From IMG/VR virus record IMGVR_UViG_3300020172_001601, positions 64,198 through 128,197 of that record: a stretch of 64,000 nt of DNA. One strand, given 5' to 3'. This document shows, in pieces, positions 2,482 to 44,474 of this stretch. The position numbers were made by a program, and so were the translations under genes. The notes beneath the pieces are model-generated. The model made no database searches. It saw nothing but the letters and a program-made list of their open reading frames with translations, and was not told the DNA's origin. Every line of letters begins with the position of its first letter. Position 1 is the first letter of the stretch. This DNA comes from a virus.

Positions 2482-2570
2482 TTGAACCTGATCGTCTTGA
2501 ACCTGATCGCCCTTTGGCTCTCTAGGTGTTTAGCAAAAACTCAATCTCCAATAACGAAGGGAATAGCCTC

Positions 2571-3341
2571 ATGGCAACAAAGAAGGCGGCGAAGGACGAA
2601 TCACCCGTCGCCAAGAAGCCGCTCAAGATTAAGGTGATTGGAACGGGCGGCATCGGCCTTTGCCTGCTTCCTTCGCTCTGTCGATACCTCAACTATAACG
2701 GCGAGAAATATCCCGCCGTGGAAGTGAGCCTGATCGACGGCGATACGTTCGAGGAACGCAATCGTGAGCGACAGGACTTTGTTGAGACGGGGCCGAAGGC
2801 GTCCATGACCGCTGCCGAATATCGGGGCAAATTCCCACGACTGATGTTTTGGGACCATCCGGTATACGTCGCCGATCACAACGTCATTCAGTTGATTCGG
2901 GAGAACGATATTGTTCTTCTCTGTGTGGATAATCACAAGACCCGCAAGCTGATTAGCGACCGGGCCGAAGAACTGAAGAATGTTACCGTCATCAGTGGCG
3001 GCAACGATTGGACTGATGGAAACGTGTTGCTTCATATTCGACGGGATGAGAAGAACCTGACGCCACCTTTGGCGAGCAAGTTTCACCCGGAGATTTTGAA
3101 TCCGACCGACGAGAACCCTGCCGACGTGGAACAGAAGGCAGAAGGTTGTGCAGAGTTGGCTGTTGCTGCACCGCAACTGCTGATTACGAACAACTACATT
3201 GCCGCCAACATGCTGGCGGGACTGTACAACGTGATTGACGAAGGGCGATACGAGAAGGTTCTCGCCGCTCCGCACAATTTCGCAGAGGTCTACTGTGATC
3301 TCTCCGTGATGAAGTCCATCCCACGAGAACGCAAGGTGTAA
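2571..3341 (+). CDS. E1-like adenylyltransferase (ThiF/MoeB/ubiquitin-activating family)
   Basis: Rossmann motif KVIGTGGIG; DGDTFEERNRERQ and CVDNHKTRK resemble ThiF/MoeB adenylation motifs; alternative GTG start at 2526. Confidence 0.7.
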   Translation: MATKKAAKDESPVAKKPLKIKVIGTGGIGLCLLPSLCRYLNYNGEKYPAVEVSLIDGDTFEERNRERQDFVETGPKASMTAAEYRGKFPRLMFWDHPVYVADHNVIQLIRENDIVLLCVDNHKTRKLISDRAEELKNVTVISGGNDWTDGNVLLHIRRDEKNLTPPLASKFHPEILNPTDENPADVEQKAEGCAELAVAAPQLLITNNYIAANMLAGLYNVIDEGRYEKVLAAPHNFAEVYCDLSVMKSIPRERKV

Positions 3342-5624: not shown

Positions 5625-5870
5625 GCGATTTGGTGATGTGGATATGTATCGGCACGATGCTGATCGTACTCACTGAGATTTTTGGTCCGCTTTATGTAAA
5701 GTATTTCTGGCATGATCCAGAACGCCGCCTCAAAGAAATTGAGCGGCAAAATGCTTTGCTTGACAGAATCGAAAACTTCTGATATTCTCTGAGCAGTGAA
5801 ATAAACCGGGGCAGCGATGCCCTGGTTCTTTTGAAAAACAAAAAGAAAGTCGCCAGAAACCCAAATCGAC

Positions 5871-5899
5871 TTTACAAGCCTTGAAGACCGTGGTAGAAT
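5871..5899 (+). promoter_or_regulatory. sigma70-type promoter TTTACA-N17-TGGTAGAAT, first of tandem pair
   Basis: -35 TTTACA 5871-5876, 17-nt spacer, extended -10 TGGTAGAAT. Confidence 0.6.
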
Positions 5900-5968
5900 G
5901 ATTGCACAACGCTGATGAAACCGACGACGGAATCAAAAAAGAAAAGTTGTCGGAAACCTGAAGTGGAC

Positions 5969-5997
5969 TTTACAAGGATGGAAAGCTGTGGTAGAAT
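5969..5997 (+). promoter_or_regulatory. sigma70-type promoter, second of tandem pair upstream of tRNA-like cluster
   Basis: TTTACA-N17-TGGTAGAAT; upstream block repeats sequence from first copy. Confidence 0.6.
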
Positions 5998-6127
5998 GAT
6001 GACACAACGGAAATGATCCAGCAACCTTGCAGCGATGGTTGATGGGTAACAAGGGTGTGTGAGGGAGGCGCTGTGACCTCCGCACTTAATGTAAACCTGT
6101 AAAATGGTTTCGCCCTTAAAACGATAT

Positions 6128-6218
6128 GGCGAGGTAGCTCAGTCTGTTAGAGCATTGTGAATAGGGGCCGAAAGGTCTACTAACGCAAGGGTCGGTGGTT
6201 AAAATCCATCCCTCGCCA
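6128..6218 (+). tRNA. oversized tRNA-like gene (91 nt); anticodon stem TTGTG/CGCAA encloses a 24-nt loop with GAAA-tetraloop hairpin
   Basis: Acceptor GGCGAGG/CCTCGCC, D-arm GCTC..GAGC, T-arm GGTGG-TTAAAAT-CCATC. Confidence 0.4.
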
Positions 6219-6295
6219 CTTTGTAAGTCAAATGCCGTCAGGACTACATTTGCAAAACGTAACGTCTTGGCAACCATTTGTTGACTTACATTTAT

Positions 6296-6410
6296 GGACT
6301 GTTAGCTCAGTGGCCTGTTTACAGGGAAGCCGGTTGTATTAGCCGAGAAATCGGATGATACAAACACTTCAGAGCGTCGTAGCAATACGAAGGTCGATGG
6401 TTCGATTCCA
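6296..6410 (+). tRNA. oversized tRNA-like gene (115 nt) with ~60-nt D-loop insertion and a 4-nt loop where the anticodon loop should be
   Basis: Acceptor GGACTGT/ACGGTCC, T-arm GATGG-TTCGATT-CCATC; internal GAAA/GCAA tetraloop hairpins. Confidence 0.4.
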
Positions 6411-6424
6411 TCACGGTCCACTAT

Positions 6425-6602
6425 GGGGAAGTAGTAGAATCCAACTCAGAGCAGTTGGAGTGGAAAAGCAGTTTAGGCTCACGGAGCAATCCGCATGTTG
6501 ATGGGGAAACCCATAAACATGAACCAAGAGGGGCGACCCTCGAACAACTGCCGAGAATACCGGGGTAACTCGGTGATGCTGGTTCGAGTCCAGCCTTCCC
6601 CA
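6425..6602 (+). tRNA. tRNA-like termini (GGGGAAG...CTTCCCC plus T-arm) separated by 178 nt; may be one interrupted gene or composite
   Basis: 5' acceptor/D-like start and 3' CTGG-TTCGAGT-CCAG T-arm with complementary acceptor strand. Confidence 0.25.
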
Positions 6603-6606
6603 CTAC

Positions 6607-6717
6607 GCAGCGGTAGCTCAAATAGAACCGTTTTACAGGTAGTGGCAACATTACTTGCATTTGGTAGAGCCTTCCGTAAGGAAGAGGTTGAAGGTGAGAG
6701 TCCTTCCCGCTGCACCA
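6607..6717 (+). tRNA. oversized tRNA-like gene (110 nt) with ~38-nt D-loop insertion and encoded CCA
   Basis: Acceptor GCAGCGG/CCGCTGC, D-stem GCTC/GAGC enclosing insert, T-arm GAAGG-TGAGAGT-CCTTC, ACCA end. Confidence 0.35.
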
Positions 6718-6880
6718 TGCTGGGGTAGTAGAATTGGAATGTATGACTAGGAAGCGACATGAGGTTGTAATGACCTTTAATTCGCCCCCATGACCATACA
6801 GAGAACGCTACAGTAATGTGGAAATGCAGGTTCGAGTCCTGCCCCCGGCACTTAACATTCAACACACAGGAGATTGCACG

Positions 6881-7351
6881 ATGGCATCAATTTCGCTTGC
6901 GAAGGCCCTGAAGCTGAAGAACCGTCTGGCTGGTCGTCTGAACAAAGTTCAGAATGATATTGTGACGTACAACTCAGTCCTGACCGAACAAGCGGGCAAA
7001 GTTGATGTTCCCGCTCTGTGCAAACTGCGTGATGAGATCGCCGACAACCTCATCGCATTGAAGACGAAGATCATCGTCTCCAATGCTGAGATTCAGGGCG
7101 ACCTGATTCGTCAGGGAGAATTGAAGTCCAAGTTGACGTGGCTTGCCACGCTCGACACCCGTGACGGCAAGGAACGTCATGGCTACCAAAACACCGAAGT
7201 AACCTGGACGGCCACGCTCAAGAAGAAAGACGTGGACGACGAAACCAGGAAGCTGGAAACCGAGATCGACGCCATCCAGGATAAGCTGGACAGCTTCAAC
7301 CACACGAAGAAAGTGGAAGTTGCTGATCGTTCGCTCGAACTCGCCAGCTAA
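6881..7351 (+). CDS. hypothetical protein (coiled-coil-like)
   Basis: AGGAG RBS then ATG at 6881; track ORF 6818 start trimmed because it began inside a tRNA-like gene. Confidence 0.45.
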   Translation: MASISLAKALKLKNRLAGRLNKVQNDIVTYNSVLTEQAGKVDVPALCKLRDEIADNLIALKTKIIVSNAEIQGDLIRQGELKSKLTWLATLDTRDGKERHGYQNTEVTWTATLKKKDVDDETRKLETEIDAIQDKLDSFNHTKKVEVADRSLELAS

Positions 7352-9320: not shown

Positions 9321-9405
9321 GCGCTCGACGCTGAATTGGTTGCAGCACCAGACTTTTAATCTGGTTTCCGCAAGGGACGTGTGGGTTCGAGTCCCACCGG
9401 GCGCA
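9321..9405 (+). tRNA. tRNA with anticodon TTT (Lys) carrying a 16-nt variable arm (85 nt)
   Basis: Acceptor GCGCTCG/CGGGCGC; anticodon arm CCAGA-CTTTTAA-TCTGG; T-arm GTGGG-TTCGAGT-CCCAC. Confidence 0.55.
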
Positions 9406-9430
9406 CTGTAACGAAATGAATGAACACTGA

Positions 9431-9860: not shown

Positions 9861-9950
9861 TGTGAGATACGCTAGTTGGTAAGCGGCGAAGCTGTTAACT
9901 TCGTGCAATCCGTCTTGAACGGTACGCAGGTTCGACCCCTGCTCTCACAG
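9861..9950 (+). tRNA. tRNA with anticodon GTT (Asn) carrying a 22-nt variable arm (90 nt)
   Basis: Acceptor TGTGAGA/TCTCACA; anticodon arm CGAAG-CTGTTAA-CTTCG; T-arm GCAGG-TTCGACC-CCTGC. Confidence 0.55.
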
Positions 9951-9956
9951 CTTTCT

Positions 9957-10318: not shown

Positions 10319-10386
10319 GGGGTAGCCTACGGGTAGGCTCTGTGCCTTGCAAGCACGGATATGGGGTTCAACTCCCCACTGCTCCA
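10319..10386 (+). tRNA. tRNA-Ala (TGC) second copy, shortened D-arm, G3:U70
   Basis: Acceptor GGGGTAG/CTGCTCC; anticodon arm TGTGC-CTTGCAA-GCACG. Confidence 0.6.
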
Positions 10387-10393
10387 CTGATAT

Positions 10394-10464
10394 AGGTGTG
10401 TGGTGTAGCGGTAGCACGCTGATCTCCAAAATCATCGGTGAGGGTTCGACTCCTTCCACACCTG
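10394..10464 (+). tRNA. tRNA-Trp (CCA)
   Basis: Acceptor AGGTGTG/CACACCT; anticodon loop CTCCAAA. Confidence 0.8.
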
Positions 10465-10517
10465 CTGAGTTTATTGGTTCTCGACAACTCTTCGGAGTAT
10501 AAAAACCAATACTGTAT

Positions 10518-10748: not shown

Positions 10749-10995
10749 GAGAGTGTAGTGTGAATAGCCGCAGAGGTAAATTCACAAAAGTTGAAGGAAG
10801 TGCAAAGCTAAAACTGCAAGTAACAGTTGCAAAAGCTATAAAAACCGTGAGCGGCTGTAAGGGCCGACAGGCTTGGAGAAAATAACTTTGCATAGAGATC
10901 AATGAGTAGTGTTTCGAGATAAGCGGTAGGCAGCACAGAGGCTATAGCATTTGCAACCGGAGCCTCCAGTTTAGGTTCGAGTCCTAACGCTCTCA
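10749..10995 (+). tRNA. tRNA-like termini (GAGAGTG...CGCTCTC plus T-arm) flanking a ~170-nt structured insert (247 nt total)
   Basis: Complementary acceptor halves and TTAGG-TTCGAGT-CCTAA T-arm; no ORF inside; could be composite. Confidence 0.2.
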
Positions 10996-11400: not shown

Positions 11401-11467
11401 CTATGTTCATCAGGTCCGCTAACTTGGTGAACAGAAAGGTTGCGGCGAGTTTAGCGGCTCGTTTGAG

Positions 11468-11539
11468 GTTGTGTTCGTCTAGTGGTCTAGGATGCCGTCG
11501 TTGAAGACGGCGACATGGGTTCAAATCCCATACACAATC
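11468..11539 (+). tRNA. tRNA with non-canonical anticodon loop (6 or 8 nt, contains TTGAAG)
   Basis: Acceptor GTTGTGT/ACACAAT; T-arm ATGGG-TTCAAAT-CCCAT; anticodon stem GCCGTC/GACGGC. Confidence 0.5.
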
Positions 11540-11556
11540 TCGCAACTGAATTTTAT

Positions 11557-11635: not shown

Positions 11636-11640
11636 CTCGA

Positions 11641-11708
11641 TTCGGGTTAGTGTAACGGTAGCACGGAGCCGTCAAAGGCTCCAGAGTGGTTCGACTCCAC
11701 ACCCTTAT
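11641..11708 (+). tRNA. tRNA-like gene, family member 1 of 3 (shared D-arm TAGTGTAACGGTAGCACG), anticodon-position loop only 6 nt
   Basis: T-arm AGTGG-TTCGACT-CCAC; stem GGAGCC/GGCTCC with loop GTCAAA. Confidence 0.4.
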
Positions 11709-11716
11709 CACAATAT

Positions 11717-11786
11717 GTTCTGTCCTGCGGATTCAGGCATTGAGTCTACGAAACTCGACTGGAAGGTTCGACTCCTTCACGGAACA
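11717..11786 (+). tRNA. tRNA-Arg (ACG)
   Basis: Acceptor GTTCTGT/ACGGAAC; anticodon arm TGAGT-CTACGAA-ACTCG. Confidence 0.75.
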
Positions 11787-12180: not shown

Positions 12181-12957
12181 CTGAAACATTTAACCTTTGG
12201 AGAAATACTATGGTGCGTCTTTGGCTCGAAACTGTGCGGATTTAGACCAACAGGTAGGTTACACCTGGGGCATTACTTCTCGGTGATTCAACCGGGACAA
12301 GCTGGGTGTACCGTACTGGTGGCAAACTATCATGCACCGGAGGTAAAGAATCTGGAAGTATCCGTGAACGCCTTACGGCAATACGGTGTCCAGACCATAG
12401 TGATTCAGAAGGACGTGTTTGACGCTGAGTTGTTCTTCCGACTATTGACGCTCGCTAAAATGGGCGACTTGAGCCGGATGACACAATTCAAGTCAACAGA
12501 AGAGGACGATAGGACTGGCCAATTGTTGACCTACCCTGTTCTCATGGCGCATGATGTTGCGGGTTACTCCGAAGTCATTGTGGGCCTGGATCAGAAGCAG
12601 CATTTGGAATATGCCAGAAAGCTGTTGAGAAAATACAACAGTGTATATGGCACGACATATCCAATCCCGATAGCGAATATCGTGGTGGGACGTGTCAAAG
12701 ATTTGCGTGACCCGACGAAGAAAATGTCGAAGTCATCACCACAAGGATGTTTATTCCTTGATGATAAGGTTGATGATATTCAACAAAAGATTCGGAAAGC
12801 GACCGCAGATGAAGAGGGCCTGAATAACTTGAAGTTTTTGTATGGGGAGTTTGTAAGAGAAACGCCTCCAACAAGTAATCAAGAACTAAAAGAAAAGCTG
12901 GCCGATGGTTTGGTGAAATGCTTTGCAAGCTGTAGTGGCACAGCATCCGGCTCTTAA
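12160..12957 (+). CDS. trpS: tryptophanyl-tRNA synthetase-like (short; no canonical start codon before the HIGH region)
   Basis: FRPTGRLHLGHY (HIGH region) at 12241-12276 lies upstream of first ATG/GTG; LTYPVLMAHDV and KMSKS present; frame opens at 12160 after TGA; 5' end abuts tRNA-Thr, 3' end overlaps tRNA-Lys. Confidence 0.6.
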   Translation, partial: VRFSQAALKHLTFGEILWCVFGSKLCGFRPTGRLHLGHYFSVIQPGQAGCTVLVANYHAPEVKNLEVSVNALRQYGVQTIVIQKDVFDAELFFRLLTLAKMGDLSRMTQFKSTEEDDRTGQLLTYPVLMAHDVAGYSEVIVGLDQKQHLEYARKLLRKYNSVYGTTYPIPIANIVVGRVKDLRDPTKKMSKSSPQGCLFLDDKVDDIQQKIRKATADEEGLNNLKFLYGEFVRETPPTSNQELKEKLADGLVKCFASCSGTASGS

Positions 12958-12997: not shown

Positions 12998-13079
12998 GCA
13001 GGTATGGCAGAACGGTTATGCACCTGACTCTTAATCAGGGATCGCAAGATCAACGTAGGTTCGACTCCTACTGCCTGCA
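12998..13079 (+). tRNA. tRNA with anticodon CTT by position but type-II-like scaffold (3-bp D-stem, 15-nt variable arm)
   Basis: Acceptor GCAGGTA/TGCCTGC; anticodon arm CCTGA-CTCTTAA-TCAGG; variable hairpin GATC-GCAA-GATC. Confidence 0.5.
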
Positions 13080-13087
13080 CTATTTAC

Positions 13088-15561: not shown

Positions 15562-15701
15562 GCGTCTTTAGTGTAACTGTTAGAGCCGACCGACCTGAAA
15601 GGCCACCGGGCAACCGAGTTCTTCAGGCACGACAAGCGATAACGGCTGAAGCACGTCGCCTCTGGAGGGCAAGAGACTAGGTGCGAATCCTAGAGGACGC
15701 T
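15562..15701 (+). tRNA. tRNA-like termini (GCGTCTT...AGGACGC) with ~65-nt internal insert (140 nt)
   Basis: D-arm GTGT..GAGC; T-arm CTAGG-TGCGAAT-CCTAG. Confidence 0.3.
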
Positions 15702-15801: not shown

Positions 15802-15926
15802 GCCGGGTTAGCTCAATGGTAGAGCGCCAAAAACTACTCTCAGCAATATTTGGGCTTCGGCCATGCTCGTTGGGAATACATTCCACTCGGAGGAGGAGGT
15901 CGTTGGTCCGATTCCAACACCCGGCA
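15802..15926 (+). ncRNA. tRNA-like RNA with ~50-nt structured insert at the anticodon-arm position; paralog of 41936-42058
   Basis: Perfect acceptor GCCGGGT/ACCCGGC, canonical D-arm, T-arm GTTGG-TCCGATT-CCAAC; insert has ATATTTGGGCTTCGGCCATGC (UUCG hairpin) and ATGCTCGTTGGGAATACATT hairpin. Confidence 0.5.
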
Positions 15927-15928
15927 CT

Positions 15929-16825
15929 ATGATTTGCGTTTACTTAGTAAATGAAGAACCGGCTTATATTGGGATGTTGTCCCTCAGCCTTAAAATGCTG
16001 CGACAGCATAACCCTAATGTGCCAGTTATTGTTTACTATGTCCAAGATGGCAAAAGGGATTCACGAAAAATCCCGCTCACTGAAATAACGAGAGCCTTGA
16101 ATAAGTTGCCAAACGACTATGCGTCGTTCAGTAATCTCTGCGAAGAACTCAATGTCGAGATTAGAGTTCGCAAGCCAAAACAAGAAGAAGCATATTACTC
16201 TCTGCATCGTTTGCTGTTGCAGGAGATCGAAGAAGAGACAGTGCTTCTGTTAGATGGCGACACCTTTATCTTCGGCAATATTGAGGAATTTCCCAAGATA
16301 TATGCTGGATACGATTTTGTCGCCACACCGAATTCTTGGGGCATGGTTCATCCGGTTCCTGGTTTAGACCCCAGCTTCAAGTCGTTCAACTCCGGCGTGG
16401 TGTTATGTCAGAACGGCATATTCAAGCGTTGGATGAATACAATAGGCGATTACTGTCAGAGATTATATGACGGTCGCCATCCACAGTCAGAATGGTTGTG
16501 GAGTGTAAGTTTAGAGTGTGCTGGCCGAGAAGAGTTGGCGGCGAGTTTGTTTGTTTTAGACAACGGTTTGAAGTACAGATACTTCGAGGATCAGCATGTG
16601 CAAATGGGGAGTTACGATGGCAACACCCGCATATTGCACACGCTAAGTCCTAGTTGGCATTCGTTGTATAACGAATGCTTCAAACCACAACGGCGAATGC
16701 TTTTTAAGCCACGCTTAAAAAATGATGCAGATGCCAGTCGTGAAGCAGATGATGATCTTGATTATCCACCAGAGGCCGATGGCAATACCGCCAACGCCCA
16801 GGCCGAACAACCAAGTTTTGAATGA
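15929..16825 (+). CDS. putative glycosyltransferase (GT8-like nucleotide-sugar transferase)
   Basis: LLDGDTFIF DxD-like motif; track start 15863 trimmed because it lay inside the tRNA-like RNA. Confidence 0.4.
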   Translation: MICVYLVNEEPAYIGMLSLSLKMLRQHNPNVPVIVYYVQDGKRDSRKIPLTEITRALNKLPNDYASFSNLCEELNVEIRVRKPKQEEAYYSLHRLLLQEIEEETVLLLDGDTFIFGNIEEFPKIYAGYDFVATPNSWGMVHPVPGLDPSFKSFNSGVVLCQNGIFKRWMNTIGDYCQRLYDGRHPQSEWLWSVSLECAGREELAASLFVLDNGLKYRYFEDQHVQMGSYDGNTRILHTLSPSWHSLYNECFKPQRRMLFKPRLKNDADASREADDDLDYPPEADGNTANAQAEQPSFE

Positions 16826-16985: not shown

Positions 16986-16998
16986 CTTGTAGAGACAA

Positions 16999-17018
16999 AT
17001 GCTAGTTGGGTTTACATT
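16999..17018 (+). repeat. copy of motif ATGCTAGTTGGGTTTACATT in 3' trailer of tRNA-Pro(CGG)
   Basis: Homologous to 15863-15882, 17182-17202, 42000-42018; region 16990-17092 bounded by inverted repeat AGAGACAA/TTGTCTCT. Confidence 0.55.
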
Positions 17019-17094
17019 GGATGCTAAGGCTCGGACCTAAAAGCTACCGCAAGGTGGCTGCAAAACAACTCAGCGCAATTTGTTGTCTCTATAT

Positions 17095-17169
17095 CAGGGT
17101 GTAGCTCAGTTTGGCTAGAGCGCCCGGTCTGGAACCGGGAGGCCGTAGGTTCAAGTCCTACTACCCTGA
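17095..17169 (+). tRNA. tRNA-Pro (TGG by position; C at 33)
   Basis: Acceptor CAGGGTG/TACCCTG; anticodon arm CCCGG-TCTGGAA-CCGGG. Confidence 0.7.
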
Positions 17170-17181
17170 CTTTTGTGACAA

Positions 17182-17202
17182 ATGCTCGTTTGGGATTACA
17201 TT
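17182..17202 (+). repeat. copy of motif ATGCTCGTTTGGGATTACATT in 3' trailer of tRNA-Pro(TGG)
   Basis: Region 17172-17300 bounded by inverted repeat TTTGTGACAA/TTGTCACAAA and contains a T-arm-like TTGG-TTCGACT-CCAA. Confidence 0.55.
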
Positions 17203-17327
17203 TGGTTCGACTCCAAGGGGCGGCTCTTTCAAAAACATGCCGCCCAACCAGCACAGGGCAACCTGGGGCTGGGGTCCGATCTCAGCACAATTTGTTGTCA
17301 CAAAATACACTTAAAAGAAAGATTGCT

Positions 17328-17699
17328 ATGCCAGAAAAATACAATTCGGTACTTTGGAAGGACTTTCCAACACTCGTTAAAAACGAACTGGAAAGAGCTA
17401 GGAATAAACACCCCGGCACTCAACATAACCTGCATGAAGGTTATGCGGTCATCCTTGAAGAAGTGGACGAATTTTGGGACATAGTAAAGAGCCAAAGGCC
17501 CGATCCGGTTCACGCCATTGAGGAATTGGTTCAAATCGCCGCTATGTGCCAAAGGACAGCGGAAGACTTGCTGTTGCGGAAAGAAAAGCGATGCAGTCGT
17601 TGCAATGTCCTATTGTCAGAAAACATTGCTAAGTATTGTGGCGATAGTGAAGAGAAAGAATCTCACAGATGGATGTCTGTTCCAGACGAGAAGACTTAA
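17328..17699 (+). CDS. MazG-like nucleotide pyrophosphohydrolase domain protein (putative)
   Basis: HEGYAVILEEVDEFWD resembles the MazG EExxE metal site; start trimmed to ATG 17328. Confidence 0.4.
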   Translation: MPEKYNSVLWKDFPTLVKNELERARNKHPGTQHNLHEGYAVILEEVDEFWDIVKSQRPDPVHAIEELVQIAAMCQRTAEDLLLRKEKRCSRCNVLLSENIAKYCGDSEEKESHRWMSVPDEKT

Positions 17700-17702
17700 T
17701 TC

Positions 17703-17776
17703 AGGCTGTAGCTCAGTTTGGCTAGAGCGCTTGCATGGGGTGCAAGAGGTCGGAGGTTCAAGTCCTCTCAGCCTGA
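17703..17776 (+). tRNA. tRNA-Pro (GGG)
   Basis: Acceptor CAGGCTG/CAGCCTG; anticodon arm CTTGC-ATGGGGT-GCAAG. Confidence 0.8.
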
Positions 17777-17963
17777 CTGAATTTCGTATTTTTTTTCTTA
17801 TTACGAATGCGACCATCGAGGCAACAAGAAAGGTGATGTAAGTGCAATGCTTACACTTAGCAAAAATTCTATATTAGCTGAAATGCAAAAATGCGATGTA
17901 AGATGTGTTCGTTGTCATCGTCTTAAAACAGCGAAAGAATTTGGCTATTACAAAATGATACTT

Positions 17964-18034
17964 GCTTCCTTGGTATAACGGTATTACGCCGCCCTCGTAA
18001 AGCGGAAATGAGTGTTCAATTCACTCAGGAAGCT
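17964..18034 (+). tRNA. tRNA-Thr (CGT)
   Basis: Acceptor GCTTCCT/AGGAAGC; anticodon loop CTCGTAA. Confidence 0.75.
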
Positions 18035-18043
18035 CTGATATAT

Positions 18044-18116
18044 GACAGCGAAGCCAAACGGCTCGGCGACAGTTTCATAAGCTGTTCATTAGTGGGTTCG
18101 ACTCCCACCGCTGTCA
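18044..18116 (+). tRNA. tRNA-Met/Ile2 (CAT) third copy
   Basis: Acceptor GACAGCG/CGCTGTC; anticodon arm ACAGT-TTCATAA-GCTGT. Confidence 0.65.
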
Positions 18117-18207
18117 CTTGGTTCAAATGCAGGCAGGATTACATTTATCGGGCGATGAGCCGAAAGGGTCGCTGGTTCGATTCCAGCCCCAGCAGCTTAG
18201 ATAGATT

Positions 18208-18789
18208 ATGTTGAAACCCACACGTTTAATTTGGCAAGACTTGGTTAGTCGGATTGTTCAATTGGGACATGATCGAGATCAAGTTGTGCATGGCTCAATG
18301 CCTGAAAGTACACTGGCTCTTTTGTCAAATGTATTGACAGGGAATGGTTTGCAAATTGGTGGATTTGTTGGCGTGTCTCATTGTTATTTGGCGTGGGCCT
18401 TGCGAGACAAAGGCTCGATATGCACTGTGGACCCCAATTTGAAACATCGTGGTATTGAAAATCCTTTCTTGGTTGCGACCAGGATGGTTTCTGAGTTTGG
18501 ATTATTGAAAAACTCAATGCTGATATGTGGATATGGCCTAAAACAAATGCGGTTGTTTGCGATCTTGGGAGTGAAATTTGATTTCATCATTTTGGATGGC
18601 AATCATGATTTTCAGATGGTGAATGATGAGATCGAGTGCGCCACACCGATATTGAAAGACGGTGGATATTTGGTCTTGGATGACATCGACCATTGGGACG
18701 GTCCAAAAAAGGTTTACAACAGCGGTCCAGCAGGGTATAATCGGATCGAACTGGATTCGAGGGCTGGACTTTTGCAGAAAATGGGGTAA
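18208..18789 (+). CDS. class I SAM-dependent methyltransferase (Methyltransf_24/TylF-like)
   Basis: ILDGNHDFQMV..LKDGGYLVLDDI matches the DGDHSYE..PGG..DD pattern. Confidence 0.5.
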   Translation: MLKPTRLIWQDLVSRIVQLGHDRDQVVHGSMPESTLALLSNVLTGNGLQIGGFVGVSHCYLAWALRDKGSICTVDPNLKHRGIENPFLVATRMVSEFGLLKNSMLICGYGLKQMRLFAILGVKFDFIILDGNHDFQMVNDEIECATPILKDGGYLVLDDIDHWDGPKKVYNSGPAGYNRIELDSRAGLLQKMG

Positions 18790-24427: not shown

Positions 24428-24496
24428 GTCTCGGCCTGCGGATCAGGCGTTGGGCCTCCGAAGCCCGAATGAAAGGTTCGACTCCTTTCCGGGATA
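24428..24496 (+). tRNA. tRNA-Arg (CCG)
   Basis: Acceptor GTCTCGG/CCGGGAT; anticodon arm TGGGC-CTCCGAA-GCCCG. Confidence 0.7.
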
Positions 24497-24499
24497 CTT

Positions 24500-24567
24500 G
24501 CCCCTGGTGATGGACACAGCAGATCGTTCTAAGGTCAGCGTTGAGGGTTCGATTCCTTCCGGGGGCG
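24500..24567 (+). tRNA. tRNA, anticodon unresolved (loop region GTTCTAAGG; possibly TCT)
   Basis: Acceptor GCCCCTG/CGGGGGC; T-arm GAGGG-TTCGATT-CCTTC. Confidence 0.5.
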
Positions 24568-24697
24568 CTTGGGTCAAATGCCATGATGGGAGTACATTCT
24601 GTTAAAATGACCCCTCTCATCGAATAATTTGTTGACCCATTTTTTAGAAATTGTGCCTACCATTGGCACTTACTCAAGCTAAGGGTACGGGCGTGTA

Positions 24698-33621: not shown

Positions 33622-34092
33622 ATGGACAAGGCGTTTGAATTTTTCCGTGACCAAATGCGAGGCATCAGGCATGGAGAAATCTCCACTGGCCTCATCGACA
33701 CAATCCGGGTGGAAGCATACGAGCAGCGATTGCCGCTCAAGCAACTGGCCTGGACCTCACCAGATAAAAACAACCGAATCCTAGTGTCACCGTATGACAC
33801 GGCTTTATTGGGAGCAATTGATCGTGCCATTAAAGCAGAAGGGTTCAACTCCTATGTTTTCTCCAAAACCCAGGTGGTAGTCAATTGTCCGGTTCGTAGT
33901 GGTGAAGATACAGAACGGGTGATCCAACAGATCAATAAGCTGGCCGAAGAAGCCAGAGTTGTGATTAGGAATATCCGAAAGAAGATTCGCCAAAAAGCCG
34001 AAGAGGATATAGACAAACCACTTCAAAAGTTGACGGATGAAAAGATCAAAGAAATCAATGATCTCGTTGACTACAAGGTGAAGTGCTTATGA
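33622..34092 (+). CDS. frr: ribosome recycling factor (RRF/Frr)-like
   Basis: GLIDTIRVEAYEQRLPLKQLA..ILVSPYD..IDRAIKA..ARVVIRNIRKK follows the RRF pattern. Confidence 0.7.
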   Translation: MDKAFEFFRDQMRGIRHGEISTGLIDTIRVEAYEQRLPLKQLAWTSPDKNNRILVSPYDTALLGAIDRAIKAEGFNSYVFSKTQVVVNCPVRSGEDTERVIQQINKLAEEARVVIRNIRKKIRQKAEEDIDKPLQKLTDEKIKEINDLVDYKVKCL

Positions 34093-34520: not shown

Positions 34521-35159
34521 AAAACACGATGGTTGGTTTTGGTTTGCGTCAATTATATTATGATTGACTGCTAAACCAGGGATAGGAACCGATGATGGAC
34601 TCTTTAGTGTAAGCAACACGCCCAGAGATGGCTTCAAAGGGAAATGCTTGGTAAATCCAATAGGCCACCAGTTCGCTGGGTTCTATGGGCTAGTCCGAGA
34701 GAGAGCGAGTCAAAGGGTGGTATTCCCTGTACGCAAATTGACAACGCCTACGGGATTAACGACCGGGGCCGATAGTCTAGCAGTCCTTCGGCAGTGGGTT
34801 TGACCCCCACAGGGACCAGCCATCGTGCTTTTAAGAAACGTGCCTACCATTGGCACATATGGAAAGGATCAATGGATATTTACAAACCTATTCGTGACGG
34901 GCCAAACAGCATTTTAATGCTCGTTTGGAGCTACGTTGAGAATCTAATGCCAACAATCTCAATGAGATTAGTTTGGATGCTCCCTGGCCACCGGAAAACC
35001 GAGATCAGGGTCAATGATTTGAGTGGTTCTTGGCACTGGCAGGCTGTCATGAGTGGGGATTCTGTCATAGAATAGCCGAACTAAGGTTCGCTCAAAGGGA
35101 GTGGACTCGAATAAGGCGAATAAAGGCAGAGCGGGACCACAGATTATCTGCTAACTATG

Positions 35160-35229
35160 CCCCGTCCGTTGGATAGCGGCGTCGAGTTTCCTAAACTTGA
35201 TAAATTGGTTCGATTCCAATACGGGGTAC
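35160..35229 (+). tRNA. tRNA-Arg (CCT), short D-arm
   Basis: Acceptor GCCCCGT/ACGGGGT; anticodon arm CGAGT-TTCCTAA-ACTTG. Confidence 0.6.
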
Positions 35230-36821: not shown

Positions 36822-36924
36822 GGTCGGGTAACTCAGCGGCAGAGTCATCAGTGAATCCGGGTGGTTTTATAGTTGCCATTGCGGAAAGCTGATGAGGTCG
36901 CAGGTTCGAGTCCTGCCCCGGCCA
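36822..36924 (+). tRNA. tRNA (possibly Phe, TGAA in loop) with ~30-nt insertion in the anticodon loop (103 nt)
   Basis: Acceptor GGTCGGG/CCCGGCC; D-arm ACTC..GAGT; anticodon stem CATCA/TGATG enclosing GTGAA-[TCCGGG...GCGGA]-AAGC; T-arm GCAGG-TTCGAGT-CCTGC. Confidence 0.5.
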
Positions 36925-36943: not shown

Positions 36944-37025
36944 GGGGGTGAACCCAAATGGTTGCGGGAACCGCCTTATAAGCGGCTTACAGTCAGATAA
37001 ACTGAGTATACAAGGTTCGATTCCT
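36944..37025 (+). tRNA. type-II-like tRNA (3-bp D-stem, 24-nt variable arm) with anticodon TAT by position
   Basis: Acceptor GGGGGTG/CACCCCT; anticodon arm CCGC-CTTATAA-GCGG; T-arm CAAGG-TTCGATT-CCTTG. Confidence 0.5.
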
Positions 37026-37331
37026 TGCACCCCTACTCAAAGTTGCAATGGGCAAGAACAACAAATACCATAAATTCCCTCCCCGCAAGCAGGTTCCTGT
37101 CGGCGGGGTTTGTCTTTTGTGTCAATGCAATAGACAAGTGCGAATGGCAGCACGACCCTTCGTTAAGGGCAAGTCGATTTCTCATGCCCTTGGTTTTCCG
37201 GCTGCGATGCCTTTGCTTTCTCCCGGAATGATATTCAAAGGCGTCAATAACTTGACAGGTGAAGAAGAATCATTCAAAGTACAATGTGTATTGATTTTGA
37301 ATCCAGAACGTAGTTCAGTAGAAAGAATAAA

Positions 37332-38240
37332 ATGAACATCACACGCATTGCTCCGTCGCCGACCGGCGATATGCACATTGGCACTGCCAGAACCGCATAT
37401 TTCAACTGGCTCGCAGCACGGGCCAGCGGTGGTAAGTTCATTCTTCGGGTGGACGACACCGATCAGAAGCGAAACGATCCAGCCTATACAGAAGTCATTC
37501 TGTCCACAATGAAGTGGCTAGGTTTGGACTACGATGAGATCGTCTTCCAGAGTTCCAGATTCGACGTATACAAGGCCGCAGCGGGCTTGTTGATCCATGA
37601 AGGCTGGGCCGTTCCAAAAGATGGAGCCACGGTTTTTAACTTGAAGAAGGACCATGTTTTTCCTTCTCATTGGAAGGACGAAATCAAGGGCGACATCAAG
37701 ATCAGCGATGATGACATATCCCATATGGATGGGATGGTTCTCATTAAGTCTGATGGGAGTCCATCTTATAACTTTTGTTCGATTGTTGATGATTTGCACA
37801 TGGGGGTCAACCTAATCATCCGTGGAGTGGATCATATAACAAACACAGCAAAGCAGGTGATGCTTTGGGATGTCCTCAATAGCGGACAGACGATACCAAG
37901 GTTTGCCCACCTGGGTCTTATTTGCATTGATGGAAAGCCTATGTCCAAAAGAGACGGGGCATCGAGCATGTTGAATTACATGAACGCCGGATATGATTCC
38001 GACGCCATGTTGAATTTTCTTGCACGCCTTGGTTGGGGGCCAACAAAGGACGACAAGTCCACAACCCTATTGCCGAGAGACAAGATGCTTGAAATGTTTC
38101 TAACTTCGGGTAAGATGAGGAGTCAGCCAGCTAGTTTCGATTCTGGCAAATTGGAGTCGTTCGACCGCAAGTACAAGGCCCGTAAGGGGACTTGGCGAAC
38201 GGGCGACAAGTTGATTTCTGACACTAACAAAGAGGCATAG
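37332..38240 (+). CDS. glutamyl-tRNA synthetase catalytic core lacking the anticodon-binding domain (GluQRS-like architecture)
   Basis: APSPTGDMHIGTARTAYFNWL (HIGH region), RVDDTDQKRN, KPMSKRDG (KMSKS); 302 aa, ends where GluRS anticodon-binding domain would begin. Confidence 0.7.
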   Translation: MNITRIAPSPTGDMHIGTARTAYFNWLAARASGGKFILRVDDTDQKRNDPAYTEVILSTMKWLGLDYDEIVFQSSRFDVYKAAAGLLIHEGWAVPKDGATVFNLKKDHVFPSHWKDEIKGDIKISDDDISHMDGMVLIKSDGSPSYNFCSIVDDLHMGVNLIIRGVDHITNTAKQVMLWDVLNSGQTIPRFAHLGLICIDGKPMSKRDGASSMLNYMNAGYDSDAMLNFLARLGWGPTKDDKSTTLLPRDKMLEMFLTSGKMRSQPASFDSGKLESFDRKYKARKGTWRTGDKLISDTNKEA

Positions 38241-38615: not shown

Positions 38616-38849
38616 ATGGATAATGAACAAGTCGTAGAGACAGAAAAGAAACCTCTGACACTCAGAGATGTATGCTTGGGAGTGTTGGGCGTATTCGTGA
38701 TTCTGGCGATATTTGCCTTGCCTATTATGTTTCTGATGAATTTCCTGTTACCAGTTTTCGGTGTAGAGCGGCAGATTGACTACCAGCACTCGTTGGCGTT
38801 TGCGGTTCTTCTGTTTTGCATGGGGCGTTGCTTCAGCCCAGCCAAGTGA
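38616..38849 (+). CDS. small membrane protein
   Basis: Two hydrophobic helices. Confidence 0.35.
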   Translation: MDNEQVVETEKKPLTLRDVCLGVLGVFVILAIFALPIMFLMNFLLPVFGVERQIDYQHSLAFAVLLFCMGRCFSPAK

Positions 38850-38850
38850 T

Positions 38851-38879
38851 TTTACAACTGAAGCAAATCAGGGTATAAT
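38851..38879 (+). promoter_or_regulatory. sigma70-type promoter TTTACA-N17-GGGTATAAT
   Basis: Supports ATG 38890 as the real start of the next gene. Confidence 0.5.
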
Positions 38880-38889
38880 CCGGGCTGTC

Positions 38890-39258
38890 ATGAAAAAAAC
38901 CGATGCCTACAAATTCTTGAATTCGTTGGTGGAAAAGTATCCGAGCGATGCGGCTCCGATGCTGATTGACATCATTGTGGACTATTTGCTGTTCCCAAAA
39001 GGTGACGGCACCAGTCCCCAACTTACTGGCATTGACCAAAAAGTTGCTGAAATGATGGTTGATTCGAGTCGCAAGATTGAGGCTGTGAAATACGTTCGGG
39101 AGCAACTGCAATGTGGTCTTAAAGAAGCCAAGGACTATGTTGAGCAACGAGTGTGGCCTGCTGGCGTCGGTCCTCAAAGTGAAAAGGCTTTAGAACTACA
39201 ATCCCGATATGTACAATCGGTTTTGGACAAAATTCGTGTTGATTATAACGTAGGGTGA
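38890..39258 (+). CDS. protein with ribosomal protein bL12 (L7/L12) C-terminal domain
   Basis: IEAVKYVREQLQCGLKEAKDYVEQ aligns with bL12 CTD [25 protein letters not shown]; N-terminal half unrelated. Confidence 0.5.
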   Translation: MKKTDAYKFLNSLVEKYPSDAAPMLIDIIVDYLLFPKGDGTSPQLTGIDQKVAEMMVDSSRKIEAVKYVREQLQCGLKEAKDYVEQRVWPAGVGPQSEKALELQSRYVQSVLDKIRVDYNVG

Positions 39259-41905: not shown

Positions 41906-41937
41906 GGACCGGGTTGCCGGTCCTCGGCCTGCTTTTT
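41906..41937 (+). terminator. hairpin plus T-run after Ro60 gene
   Basis: GGACCGG-GTTG-CCGGTCC then TCGGCCTGCTTTTT. Confidence 0.45.
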
Positions 41938-44416: not shown

Positions 44417-44445
44417 TTTACAACCAGACAAGATTGCGGTATAAT
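44417..44445 (+). promoter_or_regulatory. sigma70-type promoter TTTACA-N17-GCGGTATAAT upstream of IleRS
   Basis: Conserved architecture. Confidence 0.55.
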
Positions 44446-44474
44446 CCCTCCTACTCTTTACTTGCGAGGGATCA

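Follow-up and report, generated by a model that had tools for sequence, protein, structure and literature searches.

A probable single array of five tRNA-like RNAs without an anticodon loop and a Y-RNA-like hairpin in a huge phage

The tRNA-like domain of tmRNA and the TYMV-type 3′ structures of viruses carry an acceptor/T-arm and a CCA end and have no decoding anticodon loop. Enzymes that act on tRNA process these structures and often charge them with an amino acid (summarised in 10.1101/312249). YrlA and YrlB are bacterial Y RNAs that are bound by Ro60 (Rsr) and encoded together with it, in phages as well as elsewhere; YrlA is a tRNA mimic without an anticodon loop that frequently shares its transcript with tRNAs and another Y RNA, of the hairpin type, and in Mycobacterium smegmatis it is cut by RNase P and receives CCA (PMC4201824; 10.1101/312249). 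A further case is provided by RNAC and RNAD (species 1 and 2), small stable RNAs of the tRNA cluster of phage T4 whose role is unexplained (PMC3014915).

We analysed a 64-kb stretch (64,000 nucleotides, referred to here as the window) of the 390-kb contig of a huge phage and propose that positions 5871-6850 form a single transcription unit encoding five non-decoding tRNA-like RNAs (c1 to c5) and a Y-RNA-like hairpin (Yh), a reading to which we assign a probability of roughly 0.7. The five units were defined by scanning for a 7-bp acceptor stem together with a T arm, and with Yh they make six RNA genes in the array. The features, in window positions, are as follows.

5871..5899, + strand: promoter P1, sigma-70-like (TTTACA, 17 nt, TG-n-TAGAAT)
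5969..5997, + strand: promoter P2, sigma-70-like (TTTACA-17-TAGAAT with TG extension), a tandem copy of P1
5998..6127, + strand: leader with hairpins, 130 nt
6128..6218, + strand: c1, tRNA-like RNA, 91 nt
6222..6291, + strand: Yh, conserved hairpin RNA with Y-RNA-like module, 70 nt, between c1 and c2
6296..6420, + strand: c2, tRNA-like RNA, 125 nt
6425..6602, + strand: c3, tRNA-like RNA, 178 nt, the largest unit
6607..6717, + strand: c4, tRNA-like RNA, 111 nt, with an encoded CCA at 6715-6717
6719..6850, + strand: c5, tRNA-like RNA, 132 nt
6881..7351, + strand: DUF6847 gene, 156 aa, used as the syntenic marker for the array

The composite 33-nt promoter pattern occurs three times in the window against an expectation of 0, and promoters of the same type lie upstream of the array in five related contigs (L020, L021, L022, L026 and L029). 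In L020 and L022 the −10 box of the second promoter is ~12 nt 5′ of c1, so that these contigs have no comparable leader; in L028, the part of the leader that was compared (window 6033-6127) is identical. Gaps of 3-5 nt separate the units from c2 to c5, and the 77 nt between c1 and c2 are taken up by the conserved hairpin RNA Yh. No terminator-like site was predicted on the + strand between c5 and the DUF6847 gene, which is therefore probably co-transcribed with the array. The AlphaFold model of the DUF6847 protein (pLDDT 93.6) had a single structural match in a PDB search (3kdq, a protein of unknown function), and no relative of the protein was found in IMG/VR. Elsewhere in the window, the phage encodes aminoacyl-tRNA synthetases of the Trp/Tyr type (12283-12957), the Glu/Gln type (37332-38240) and the Leu/Ile/Val type (44475-47036) as well as a MetRS (56950-58599).

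Much of this layout had been anticipated by a sequence-only reading of the locus. The two tandem promoters that it proposed were both found, its estimate of 4-6 consecutive RNA genes agrees with the five tRNA-like units plus Yh, and the acceptor and T-arm that it ascribed to each gene are present in five of five units, the acceptor stem having 7 bp. It had also described, correctly, 24 nt between the anticodon-stem halves of c1 with a GGCC-GAAA-GGUC hairpin inside, and a single unit with an encoded CCA, which is c4. The second unit had been placed at 6296-6410; its start stands, but its true end is 10 nt further on, at 6420. The D-loop insert of ~60 nt reported for that unit measures ~57 nt, and its GCAA tetraloop caps a UCGUA-GCAA-UACGA hairpin that stands at the anticodon position.

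Common to all five units are a 7-bp acceptor stem, A as the discriminator and a T-stem of 5 bp closing a 7-nt loop. In c2, c3 and c5 this loop has the canonical form, UUCGAnU, from which c1 (UUAAAAU) and c4 (UGAGAGU) depart. A 4-bp D-stem is retained in c1, c2 and c4, and c1 and c4 keep nucleotides that could form a 15-48 Levitt pair. A 7-nt anticodon loop is found in none of the five: its position is occupied by a closed hairpin of 4-13 bp, mostly GNRA capped, with a loop of 4 nt in c2, c3, c4 and c5 and a 13-bp helix under a GNRA cap in c1. The GNRA cap is not absolute, being replaced by GUAU in c4 of L019 and by UUAC or AUA in relatives of c2. In c2 and c4, the variable pocket of the D-loop gives rise to additional hairpins. 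We considered whether the GNRA hairpins are the long variable arms of type-II tRNAs and rejected this for c2 and c4, in which a normal 5-nt variable loop (AGGUC/AGGUU) follows; for c3 and c5 it is possible.

Standard tRNA finders deal poorly with these units. ARAGORN at its default settings called none of the five, and just c1 (49.5 bits) and c5 (31.9 bits) exceeded the gathering score of the Rfam tRNA model, in alignments that skip inserts of 28 and 78 nt, respectively. Compared with shuffled sequences, folding energies gave z values of −3.3 for c1, −4.3 for c4, −3.2 for c5 and −5.3 for c3. The dinucleotide CU directly follows the discriminator in 48 of the 51 ordinary tRNAs of the window and likewise in c1, c2, c3 and c5, and this common 3′ trailer points to maturation by the tRNA pathway. 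CCA is encoded in only 1 of those 51 ordinary tRNAs.

The helices of the individual units are maintained by compensatory changes. In place of an anticodon arm, c1 has an irregular helix of 13 bp (5 bp, internal loop, 5 bp, GNRA cap), and its D-loop lacks GG. Across six orthologues, 98.9% of the pairing is kept and 6 pairs have changed on both sides; none of 500 shuffles (relatedness ignored) was as good, and with the partners slid ~47% was paired. The covarying stems include UUGUG/CGCAA, which becomes UUAUG/CAUAA, and GGGCC/GGUCU, which becomes GAACC/GGUUU. The internal loop is conserved as (A/G)AUAG...ACUAA. Inspected by eye, this loop shows a partial resemblance, no more, to the 11-nt receptor of GAAA tetraloops. 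Unit c2 combines a canonical T-loop and G18G19 with two hairpins in the D-loop after the GG, a hairpin of 5 bp with a GCAA cap at the anticodon position and the variable loop AGGUC; its nine homologues, three of which are tandem copies in L036, show 11 compensatory pairs, which fall in the acceptor, the T-arm and the hairpin at the anticodon position.

The D-loop of c4 combines AAAUAGA with a hairpin under a GNRA cap; A15 could pair with U48, and CUUCC-GUAA-GGAAG occupies the anticodon position. RNAalifold yields a cloverleaf consensus that has 7 compensatory pairs, the stem CUUCC/GGAAG covaries to CUGCC/GGCAG among relatives, and the CCA end is kept in five of six aligned orthologues (CUU in L022). 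The c4 covariance model recovers 8 members at 95-109 bits, and the next match reaches at most 43 bits; c4 is thus a discrete family. In c5, a Leu-type D region (GUAGAAUUGGAAUG) is followed by a UGUAU/AUACA helix around a 50-nt insert, with a GUAA-capped hairpin and then a canonical T-arm. Compensatory changes in c5 include A-U to G-C in the hairpin (compared with L019) and UGUAU/AUACA to UGUAC/GUACA (compared with L029 and L022). A degenerate extra copy of c5 lies amid short tandem repeats in L029. The c5 paralogue c3, with a multi-hairpin insert bearing four GNRA caps, is the least conserved unit. It is present in L019, L029 (202 nt) and L026 (105 nt), degenerate in L020 and absent from L028, L031 and L033. 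This unit is dispensable, since it is missing in relatives whose DUF6847 protein is 95-97% identical, and its degeneration in L020 implies that part of the array may be drifting. Between relatives the tRNA core is preserved, whereas the inserts differ in both sequence and length, which suggests that the core and the absent anticodon are the functional part; c1, with its sequence-conserved internal loop, is the exception.

At least eight related contigs of huge phages share the position of the array, a gene-free stretch of 0.85-1.1 kb that precedes the DUF6847 gene. Homologous units occur in L019-L022, L026, L028-L031 and L033, and c2-like units occur at the same place in L036. Identity of the DUF6847 protein to that of the window ranges from 97% down to 51% among these relatives; c1, c2 and c4 are retained at the locus where it drops to 58-77%, and c2-like units persist even at 51%. 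The RNA part of L019 is 98% identical to that of the window, whereas the spacer that directly follows c5 is diverged and contains an insertion. In some relatives the slots of the array hold other RNAs: L021 and L030 have an element resembling SRP RNA (31 bits, E 0.009 in L021), and another RNA of ~190 nt occurs in L020, L021, L028 and L029. The covariation analyses rested on alignments of 6-9 related sequences each.

Database searches beyond these relatives were negative. Blastn of positions 5800-6900 against 50,697 phage records gave no match, the exact c1 29-mer had none in IMG/VR, and the promoter pattern matched 12 IMG/VR loci, none related to the window. A 15-mer of c4 (GGTAGCTCAAATAGA) gave chance matches only, at 62 loci in IMG/VR and, in GTDB genomes, among the matches listed (at least 120 loci); none of the IMG/VR loci, nor of the GTDB loci among the matches listed, has the c4 cloverleaf, and the known distribution of the family is therefore one phage clade. 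At permissive thresholds, Rfam models yielded no intron, ribozyme, riboswitch or YrlA match in the array, the Ro60 neighbourhood or 17165-18260; the other matches were weak, non-significant and to unrelated families, the one relevant exception being a sub-threshold match to YrlB. Our literature search found no description of these RNAs.

The YrlB match is to Yh, which is built of a stem, an AUGC/AUUUG internal loop and an apical part, GGACUACAUU. The layout is that of YrlB, although the match itself is weak (19.6 bits, E 0.73, against a gathering score of 97). Seven orthologues of Yh keep 95% of its pairing with 7 compensatory pairs, and a model built from Yh finds 3 paralogues in the window. 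By its layout, Yh resembles the Y RNA YrlB, and we treat it as a putative Y-like RNA; it has a terminal stem and GUCAAAUG, one mismatch away from the GNCGAAN0-1G motif. The composite Y motif occurs seven times in the window (0.17 expected), always on the + strand. The window also contains a Ro60 gene (40135-41880), whose product matches vWA_Ro60 (7e-16) and TROVE and is ~50% identical to bacterial Ro60 proteins. Directly 3′ of it is one of the seven module copies, a tRNA/Y hybrid (41937-42058). This hybrid and a second one at 15802-15929 are un-permuted and carry AUUUG-stem-UUCG-stem-AUGC...GGAUUACAUU in the anticodon arm. Further RNAs that bear the module are 16989-17093, 17172-17305 and 24568-24642. 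In this one genome, the Y module is found in a permuted tRNA, as plain hairpins and inside un-permuted tRNA. The array is 33 kb upstream of Ro60 on the same strand, and 41937-42058 is the only element within ~4 kb of that gene. Homologues of Ro60 and of DUF6847 have longest contigs of the same lengths (602679, 55975 and 673178), and the contig of L029 is as long as that of a Ro60 cluster (462616); we read these as the same contigs, carrying both genes.

How far, then, do c1-c5 correspond to the described systems? With YrlA/YrlB the window shares a Ro60 gene and, in seven copies, a YrlB-like module. YrlA, however, is a circularly permuted tRNA that ends in the Ro-binding stem and has a closed acceptor stem, whereas in c1-c5 the acceptor ends are open, the anticodon arm is closed and a Ro-binding module is lacking: their ends pair as a tRNA acceptor stem, and the terminal stem with the GNCGAAN0-1G Ro-binding strand is absent. 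The Rfam YrlA and YrlB models give no match to c1-c5 and, for Yh, 19.6 of the 97 bits required, and the array's distance from Ro60 compares with less than 4 kb for YrlA/YrlB. The possibility that c1 is a permuted YrlA was rejected, for although the spacing fits, the motif is the tetraloop itself and varies.

T4 offers an architectural parallel. Its rnaC (139 nt) has a canonical T-arm (CCGGG-UUCGAAU-CCCGG), an imperfect acceptor-like pairing of the ends with two U-U mismatches and, where the D and anticodon arms would be, two long hairpins. Both rnaC and the c units are small RNAs of a phage tRNA region with a T-arm, paired termini and no anticodon arm, but they show no sequence similarity or homology; T4 has two such RNAs, and the window five or more. 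The other T4 RNA, rnaD, folds no better than shuffles (z = −0.8). To our knowledge, no cloverleaf with D-loop inserts has been described for T4, and we know of no formal family definition for stable RNAs of the T4 species 1 kind. Compared with the tmRNA domain and TYMV-type structures, c1-c5 are free-standing RNAs of 91-178 nt with no mRNA-like domain, G3-U70 pair or pseudoknotted acceptor. No Rfam family of the tmRNA or TYMV type was significant over c1-c5, the best being a 17-nt beta_tmRNA fragment at 6396-6412 (10.6 bits, E 0.99). Finally, the units are like intron-containing tRNAs, whether bacterial with group I introns or archaeal and eukaryal with bulge-helix-bulge introns (D-loop positions included), in being oversized, in their insertions into the anticodon region or D-loop and in being missed by default tRNA finders, and unlike them in having no intron core, no bulge-helix-bulge layout and no conserved anticodon that could be reconstituted, their inserts being conserved helices.

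This last comparison bears on the suggestion in the sequence-only reading that the genes are interrupted type-II Leu, Ser or Tyr tRNAs. The absence of Leu, Ser, Tyr and Phe tRNAs on which it was based holds for the 49 ARAGORN calls in the window, from which Cys is missing too, and an intron account, in which a phage or host endonuclease and a ligase excise the inserts, also draws on the extended anticodon arm with internal loops, which resembles eukaryal and archaeal pre-tRNA, on the Leu-type D-loop of c5 and on the fact that ARAGORN -i can force c1 into Ser-ACU with a 17-nt intron. The forced anticodons, however, conflict among orthologues: with intron models at relaxed thresholds, c1 becomes Ser-ACU, Pro-AGG or Ser-AGA, c2 becomes Cys, His, Ile or Leu, and c5 becomes Ser, Gly, Val, Gln or Ala. 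The sole U33-containing loop that c1 could form, CUACUAA, is UAACUAA in L021 and L030, and an ACU anticodon with a 5-nt variable loop is unfit for Ser identity. Where c2 and c4 should have an anticodon there is a 5-bp hairpin with a loop of 3-4 nt, and after it comes a variable loop of the normal 5 nt, so that removal of the D-loop insert would still leave no anticodon. There is no match to Intron_gpI (E ≤ 10 in 5700-7000; E ≤ 1 in the whole window), and inserts of 17 to ~110 nt are too short for a group I intron; a manual check by eye found no bulge-helix-bulge, the internal loops being symmetric or opposed rather than 3-nt bulges staggered by 4 bp. Among the ~50 window ORFs scanned against Pfam, none had an RtcB, RNA ligase or splicing endonuclease (EndA) domain. 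Since, in addition, the insert stems covary as structural elements and no relative has an uninterrupted orthologue, we regard introns as very improbable, and the interrupted type-II proposal gives way before a closed, covarying helix at the anticodon position. Even less credence is due to the idea that the units are functionless, either decaying tRNA pseudogenes or tRNA genes broken by small palindromic insertions. The tRNA arrays of huge phages turn over fast, and the presence, absence or degeneration of c3 among close relatives and the degenerate additional c5 of L029 would fit this idea, but c1, c2 and c4 persist beside a diverging neighbour protein, compensatory changes maintain the helices, including those within the inserts, eight genomes carry c4 at 95-109 bits, the tandem promoters have been retained, and the divergence of the spacer after c5 in L019 did not extend to the RNA part. 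We concluded that the units of the array are real genes and not broken or intron-split tRNAs. The other suggestion of that reading, a new class of tRNA-scaffolded or tRNA-like RNAs, is backed by synteny, covariation and the common tRNA-type 3′ trailers.

Two further explanations accept the RNAs as genes and differ over what they are for. Under one, c1-c5 are Ro60 ligands, the un-permuted equivalents of YrlA in a phage Ro60 RNP for surveillance of tRNA or other RNA. The Ro60 gene in the window would agree with this, as would the location of c1-c5 and Yh in one gene-free stretch behind the same promoters, probably co-transcribed, and the existence in this phage of the un-permuted tRNA/Y hybrids; moreover, the tip of c1 (GCCGAAAG) fits the published GNCGAAN0-1G motif (PMC4201824), at a distance from the T-arm equal to that in YrlA of Salmonella Typhimurium (counted from 10.1101/312249). 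Against it, the AUGC...GGNNUACAUU module of the seven Y-like elements is in none of the five units, model R1 does not match them, Rfam YrlA has no match, Ro60 is 33 kb away, and the c1 motif is a mere GNRA loop closed by C-G pairs that reads GCCGCAAG or ACCGAAAG in relatives. We consider this explanation unlikely. Under the other, the tRNA frame would be a scaffold for processing or stability, or a form of punctuation, comparable to engineered tRNA scaffolds or to small RNAs linked to tRNAs, and the inserted hairpins or the RNAs between units would be the functional part. The position of Yh between c1 and c2, from which tRNA processing would release it, the SRP-RNA-like element or ~190-nt RNA in the same slots of relatives and the sequence conservation of the c1 internal loop are in its favour. 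However, c2 to c5 are only 3-5 nt apart, with nothing between them to release, and insert hairpins such as that in the c4 D-loop change freely in sequence and length, which argues against a sequence-specific cargo, c1 excepted; we judge this explanation quite improbable.

For the array read as a set of non-decoding tRNA-like RNAs, established tRNA processing suggests a route of maturation. RNase P would cut at the 5′ end of the acceptor of every c unit, the 3′ pathway of the phage tRNAs would trim at the common N73-CU trailer and CCA would be added, c4 encoding it already; about six stable RNAs, Yh among them, would be released. With the top half of a tRNA and no anticodon, the c RNAs would be unable to decode. 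Most likely, though we say so with low confidence, they would mimic tRNA and occupy or titrate proteins that read the elbow or the acceptor/T-arm; candidate targets are aminoacyl-tRNA synthetases, EF-Tu and host enzymes of tRNA maturation or of tRNA-directed defence. Recognition of c1 and c4 by enzymes that read the elbow is uncertain, because these two lack the canonical G18G19/T-psi-C elbow. It is also possible that the c RNAs are part of a Ro60/Y-RNA system of RNA surveillance in the phage. A function as decoy, sponge or carrier is something that we only infer. A more speculative extension, which we put forward tentatively and think rather doubtful, is that the c RNAs, and c4 especially, given its altered elbow and the CCA retained in its gene, are dedicated phage tRNA decoys or carriers, matured and CCA-tailed in the manner of tRNAs, possibly aminoacylated and non-decoding, that soak up host effectors or enzymes acting on tRNA or donate amino acids non-ribosomally, and that together with Ro60, the permuted Y RNAs and the tRNA/Y hybrids they make up an undescribed tRNA-mimic toolkit.

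Phage tRNA arrays are usually taken as supplements for codon usage or against defence. Here, a conserved and strongly promoted part of such an array encodes RNAs with a tRNA handle and no decoding ability. For annotation, this means that default tRNA finders miss c1-c5 and that settings which allow for introns wrongly report them as tRNAs that bear introns, with spurious anticodons. Units c1, c2 and c4 supply sequence-defined families, supported by covariation, for the old question of the non-tRNA stable RNAs in phage tRNA clusters, and the array ties the c RNAs by context to Ro60/Y-RNA biology in huge phages. If the decoy proposal were true, the targets would be host immune effectors or enzymes that act on the acceptor end or the body of tRNA.

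Scanning for a 7-bp acceptor stem enclosing a T-arm returned five oversized tRNA-shaped units (c1 to c5) with internal inserts, as the sequence-only reading had described. The two tandem promoters that it had placed upstream were also found again, and the window holds three copies of their 33-nt composite pattern versus zero expected. The second unit stands as a unit, but its earlier end, 6410, fell 10 nt short of the true end.

5871-5899, sigma-70-like promoter (TTTACA, 17 nt, TG-n-TAGAAT)
5969-5997, sigma-70-like promoter (TTTACA, 17 nt, TG-n-TAGAAT)
6128-6218, c1, 91 nt
6222-6291, Yh, a hairpin RNA between c1 and c2
6296-6420, c2, 125 nt
6425-6602, c3, 178 nt
6607-6714, c4, with CCA to 6717
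6719-6850, c5, 132 nt

Default ARAGORN called none of the five units, and the Rfam tRNA model reached threshold for c1 and c5 only, taking 28 and 78 nt as insertions. All five fold better than shuffled controls (z = -3.2 to -5.3). The anatomy reported earlier proved correct for c1, in which 24 nt between the anticodon-stem halves prolong the helix under a GAAA cap, for the D-loop insert and GCAA hairpin of c2, and for the CCA of c4. Both c2 and c4 have a normal D-stem and a D-loop bearing one or two additional hairpins; the anticodon position holds 5 bp under a GCAA or GUAA loop, and the variable loop after it has the normal 5 nt. The paralogues c3 and c5 combine a D region of Leu type with a large internal domain; a GUAA-capped hairpin then precedes their canonical T-arm.

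Two explanations had been offered for such units, namely, interrupted type-II tRNAs or a new class of tRNA-scaffolded RNAs. The former had drawn on a lack of Leu, Ser, Tyr and canonical Phe tRNAs, and this lack is real: the 49 tRNA genes that ARAGORN finds within the 64-kb window, which all lie on the + strand from 8.6 to 37 kb, include none for Leu, Ser, Tyr, Phe or Cys. We nevertheless rejected c1 to c5 as interrupted Leu, Ser or Tyr tRNAs because the anticodon position is a closed helix in every family, forced anticodons conflict and no group I intron model matches. With intron models, as proposed earlier, and relaxed thresholds, ARAGORN does yield “tRNAs,” but their anticodons differ between orthologous units: c1 is read as Ser-ACU, Pro-AGG or Ser-AGA, c2 as Cys, His, Ile or Leu, and c5 as Ser, Gly, Val, Gln or Ala. 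The sole U33-containing 7-mer obtainable from c1 loses U33 in two relatives (L021 and L030), and c2 and c4 are still without an anticodon once their D-loop inserts are taken out. Rfam group I intron and ribozyme models gave no match in the array region. The search for an encoded RtcB or endonuclease that had been proposed earlier found no RtcB, RNA ligase or splicing-endonuclease domain in about 50 window ORFs. We infer that c1 to c5 cannot decode.

The relatives were contigs fetched for homologues (219 in all) of the 156-aa gene directly 3' of the array (6881-7351; weak DUF6847 match), plus one metagenome scan using their alignment. Homologous units lie in the same 0.85- to 1.1-kb gene-free stretch upstream of the DUF6847 gene in 11 loci.

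L019, array homologue, 94% nucleotide identity
L028, L031 and L033, array homologues, 95-97% protein identity
L020 and L029, array homologues, 92% protein identity
L030, array homologue, 85%
L021, array homologue, 79%
L022, array homologue, 77%
L026, array homologue, 58%
L036, three tandem c2-like copies, 51%

Across six c1 orthologues, 98.9% of cells are paired, with both sides changed in six pairs; sliding the partners left ~47% paired and 0 of 500 shuffles did as well, a shuffle count that is not a probability because the alignments are small and the sequences related. Covariation in c1 includes the extended arm itself, and the internal loop, (A/G)AUAG...ACUAA, is invariant across orthologues. 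The c4 consensus is a cloverleaf with seven compensatory pairs (RNAalifold), and its D-loop hairpin is always present with a wholly different sequence between relatives. Because its covariance model gives 95 to 109 bits in eight genomes versus ≤43 bits elsewhere, c4 is a discrete single-copy family; the model did not score L002 5026-5163, a unit of the array's design on a different Ro60-encoding phage contig. Compensatory changes occur in the acceptor, T-arm and anticodon-position hairpin of nine c2 homologues, and in c5 relative to L019, L029 and L022. The weak member is c3, missing in three close relatives and degenerate in L020. As judged from these alignments, c1 to c5 are conserved genes.

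The array is also a rearrangement hotspot. In L029, an additional, degenerate c5 copy (2596-3000) has short tandem repeats, (CATTCAA)n and (CACTCA)n, on its flanks. In two relatives, c1 is followed in its next slot by an SRP (4.5S) RNA-like element, GGUCAGGCCGGAAGGUGCAGCC: L021 (4321-4409; 31 bits, E 0.009, under gathering) and L030 (about 2290-2370). Between c1 and Yh, several relatives have a conserved structured RNA of ~190 nt, absent from the window, whose sequence includes ...GGGCUGGUUCAACA...GGUUGCnUCnGCGACCAAACAC...ACGGnUUGAACCCGUC (L020 4208-4396, L021 4410-4630, L028 2338-2526, L029 1717-1949).

Among 51 ordinary window tRNAs, C-U directly follows the discriminator in 48 and CCA is encoded in 1, a uniformity that suggests a specific 3'-processing signal. 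The same C-U trailer follows c1, c2, c3 and c5; c4 alone has CCA, kept in five of six aligned orthologues. RNase P and tRNA 3' processing are well established. On that basis, and given acceptor stems of 7 bp, T-arms and a spacing of 3 to 5 nt, c1 to c5 probably enter the tRNA maturation pathway: the primary transcript would be cut into separate tRNA-like RNAs, to which CCA would then be added. Nucleotides able to form the Levitt pair are retained in c1 (G15/C48) and c4 (A15/U48). With U8, A14, G18G19 and A21 all retained and its T-loop canonical, c2 could plausibly form an L-shaped core, and the inserts would exit from the D-loop variable pocket.

Other unusual tRNA-like RNAs lie outside the array. 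Further oversized units occupy 36822-36924, 15562-15701 and possibly 10749-10995; the first (Rfam tRNA, 41 bits; conserved in L005) resembles c1 in that 37 nt separate its anticodon-stem halves, arranged as 5 bp, internal loop, 3 bp, bulge and 6 bp. Long variable arms, a type-II feature that in bacteria normally marks Leu, Ser or Tyr tRNAs, occur here on tRNAs with Lys-UUU, Asn-GUU, Lys-CUU and Ile-UAU anticodons (9321-9406, 9861-9951, 12998-13080, 36944-37036), two of the arms being GCAA capped; these tRNAs could have dual identity or be nuclease-evading body variants. In short tRNA-like genes of 68 to 70 nt, the two nucleotides that usually link acceptor stem and D-arm are absent (11717-11786, 24428-24496, 24500-24567, 35159-35229, 11467-11541, 11639-11711); ARAGORN missed three and gave two calls with 2-nt anticodons. 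At 59563-59639, a 77-nt element combines a G3-U70 acceptor stem (GGGGUUG/CAACUCC) with a canonical T-arm and lacks a D-arm; it gives a partial tmRNA tRNA-like-domain match (33 bits, under threshold).

The window's source, a 390,142-bp metagenomic contig (ENA ERZ25042327 NODE_1), looks like a huge phage. The window encodes a gp32-like SSB, RNase H, an HNH endonuclease and several aminoacyl-tRNA synthetases, as whole genes or fragments. One of them, the gene for the 853-aa synthetase, has no blastn match in L005 over most of its length (44383-46989), so it appears to be missing there. The JAB-like and ThiF/E1-like genes, syntenic in relatives, resemble a pair for ubiquitin-like conjugation or deconjugation.

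1558-2481 and 2526-3341, JAB-like and ThiF/E1-like genes, upstream of the array
12283-12957, Trp/Tyr-type fragment
33622-34092 and 38776-39258, ribosome recycling factor and L7/L12-like protein
37332-38240, Glu/Gln-type catalytic domain
40135-41880, +, Ro60/TROVE + vWA homologue, 581 aa
44475-47036, class I synthetase with LeuRS editing-domain match, 853 aa
56950-58599, MetRS

Between c1 and c2, the 77-nt spacer forms the conserved hairpin Yh, 95% paired with seven compensatory pairs in seven orthologues and with invariant CAAAUGC, GGACUACAUU, GUCUU and UUGUUG. Its best Rfam match, far under threshold (19.6 bits, E 0.73), is YrlB, a hairpin-type Y RNA of Salmonella with the same stem and internal-loop layout. 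A covariance model built from Yh found three paralogues in the window, and the motif AUGC-N(2-12)-GG-N(1-2)-UACAUU has seven occurrences versus 0.17 expected, every one of them on the + strand. The module consists of a stem, an AUGC/AUUUG internal loop and GGnnUACAUU; its copies, putative Y RNAs for the phage Ro60, are plain hairpins, hairpins with apical inserts or embedded in tRNA-like RNAs.

6222-6291, +, Yh
15863, +, module copy
16989-17093, +, Yh paralogue, 29.9 bits
17172-17305, +, Yh paralogue, 35.4 bits
18118-18232, +, module copy, folds poorly (z = +0.5)
24568-24642, +, Yh paralogue, 41.5 bits
42000, +, module copy

The copy at 17172-17305 has the terminal module stem and folds at z = -4.5. 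Its apical insert, 73 nt long, contains a T-arm (UUUGG-UUCGACU-CCAAG), an acceptor-like stem of 7 bp that is closed and, as third hairpin, one of GNRA type. This is the permuted-tRNA layout published for YrlA (PMC4201824), although the Rfam YrlA model gave it no score. Two copies sit in the anticodon arm of paralogous tRNA-like RNAs of ordinary topology and ~122 to 128 nt (15802-15929 and 41937-42058), where UUCG closes the module's terminal stem (AUUUG-GGC-UUCG-GCC-AUGC...). The latter begins 57 nt after the Ro60 stop codon, and its L005 counterpart (10348-10470) has an acceptor stem one G longer. The window Ro60 is ~50% identical to bacterial Ro60 proteins and 79 to 95% identical to its counterparts in related huge phages; L005, a close relative, has lost all of the gene but the last 96 codons. 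The longest contigs of Ro60 and DUF6847 homologues match in size (602,679, 55,975 and 673,178 bp), and L029's contig (462,616 bp) matches the longest of a Ro60 cluster, which we read as the two genes being on the same contigs. Given the Yh paralogues, the recurrence of the module, the adjacency of one copy to Ro60 and the shared contigs, a Ro60/Y-RNA system is very probably present in the phage, with Yh as one of its Y-like RNAs within the array.

Taken together, these results establish conserved, structured, anticodon-less tRNA-like RNAs with conserved promoters upstream and tRNA-type trailers, and we put the probability of this structural and identity statement at about 0.7. Through their conserved position, covariation and tRNA-type trailers, the units support the tRNA-scaffolded alternative of the sequence-only reading; no Rfam family covers them, and we found no description of them in the literature. 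Because most inserts drift around a conserved tRNA core, we tentatively favor tRNA mimicry, in which c1 to c5 might occupy or titrate proteins that read the acceptor/T domain or elbow. Less probably, they might serve as amino-acid carriers or take part in Ro60-based surveillance. Yh lies among them, but neither its covariance model nor the composite-motif scan of the window finds a Y module in c1 to c5, so their Ro60 link is contextual. YrlA and YrlB share with them the Ro60 context and the proposed tRNA mimicry, but the topology is opposite and c1 to c5 lack a Ro-binding stem. The T4 tRNA cluster also yields stable RNAs with no known role, RNAC and RNAD (PMC3014915); T4 rnaC has a T-arm of canonical form, an acceptor-like stem with imperfect pairing and a pair of long hairpins, and is an architectural parallel, not a homologue. 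As tRNA mimics, c1 to c5 would supply defined families for an old unanswered question.
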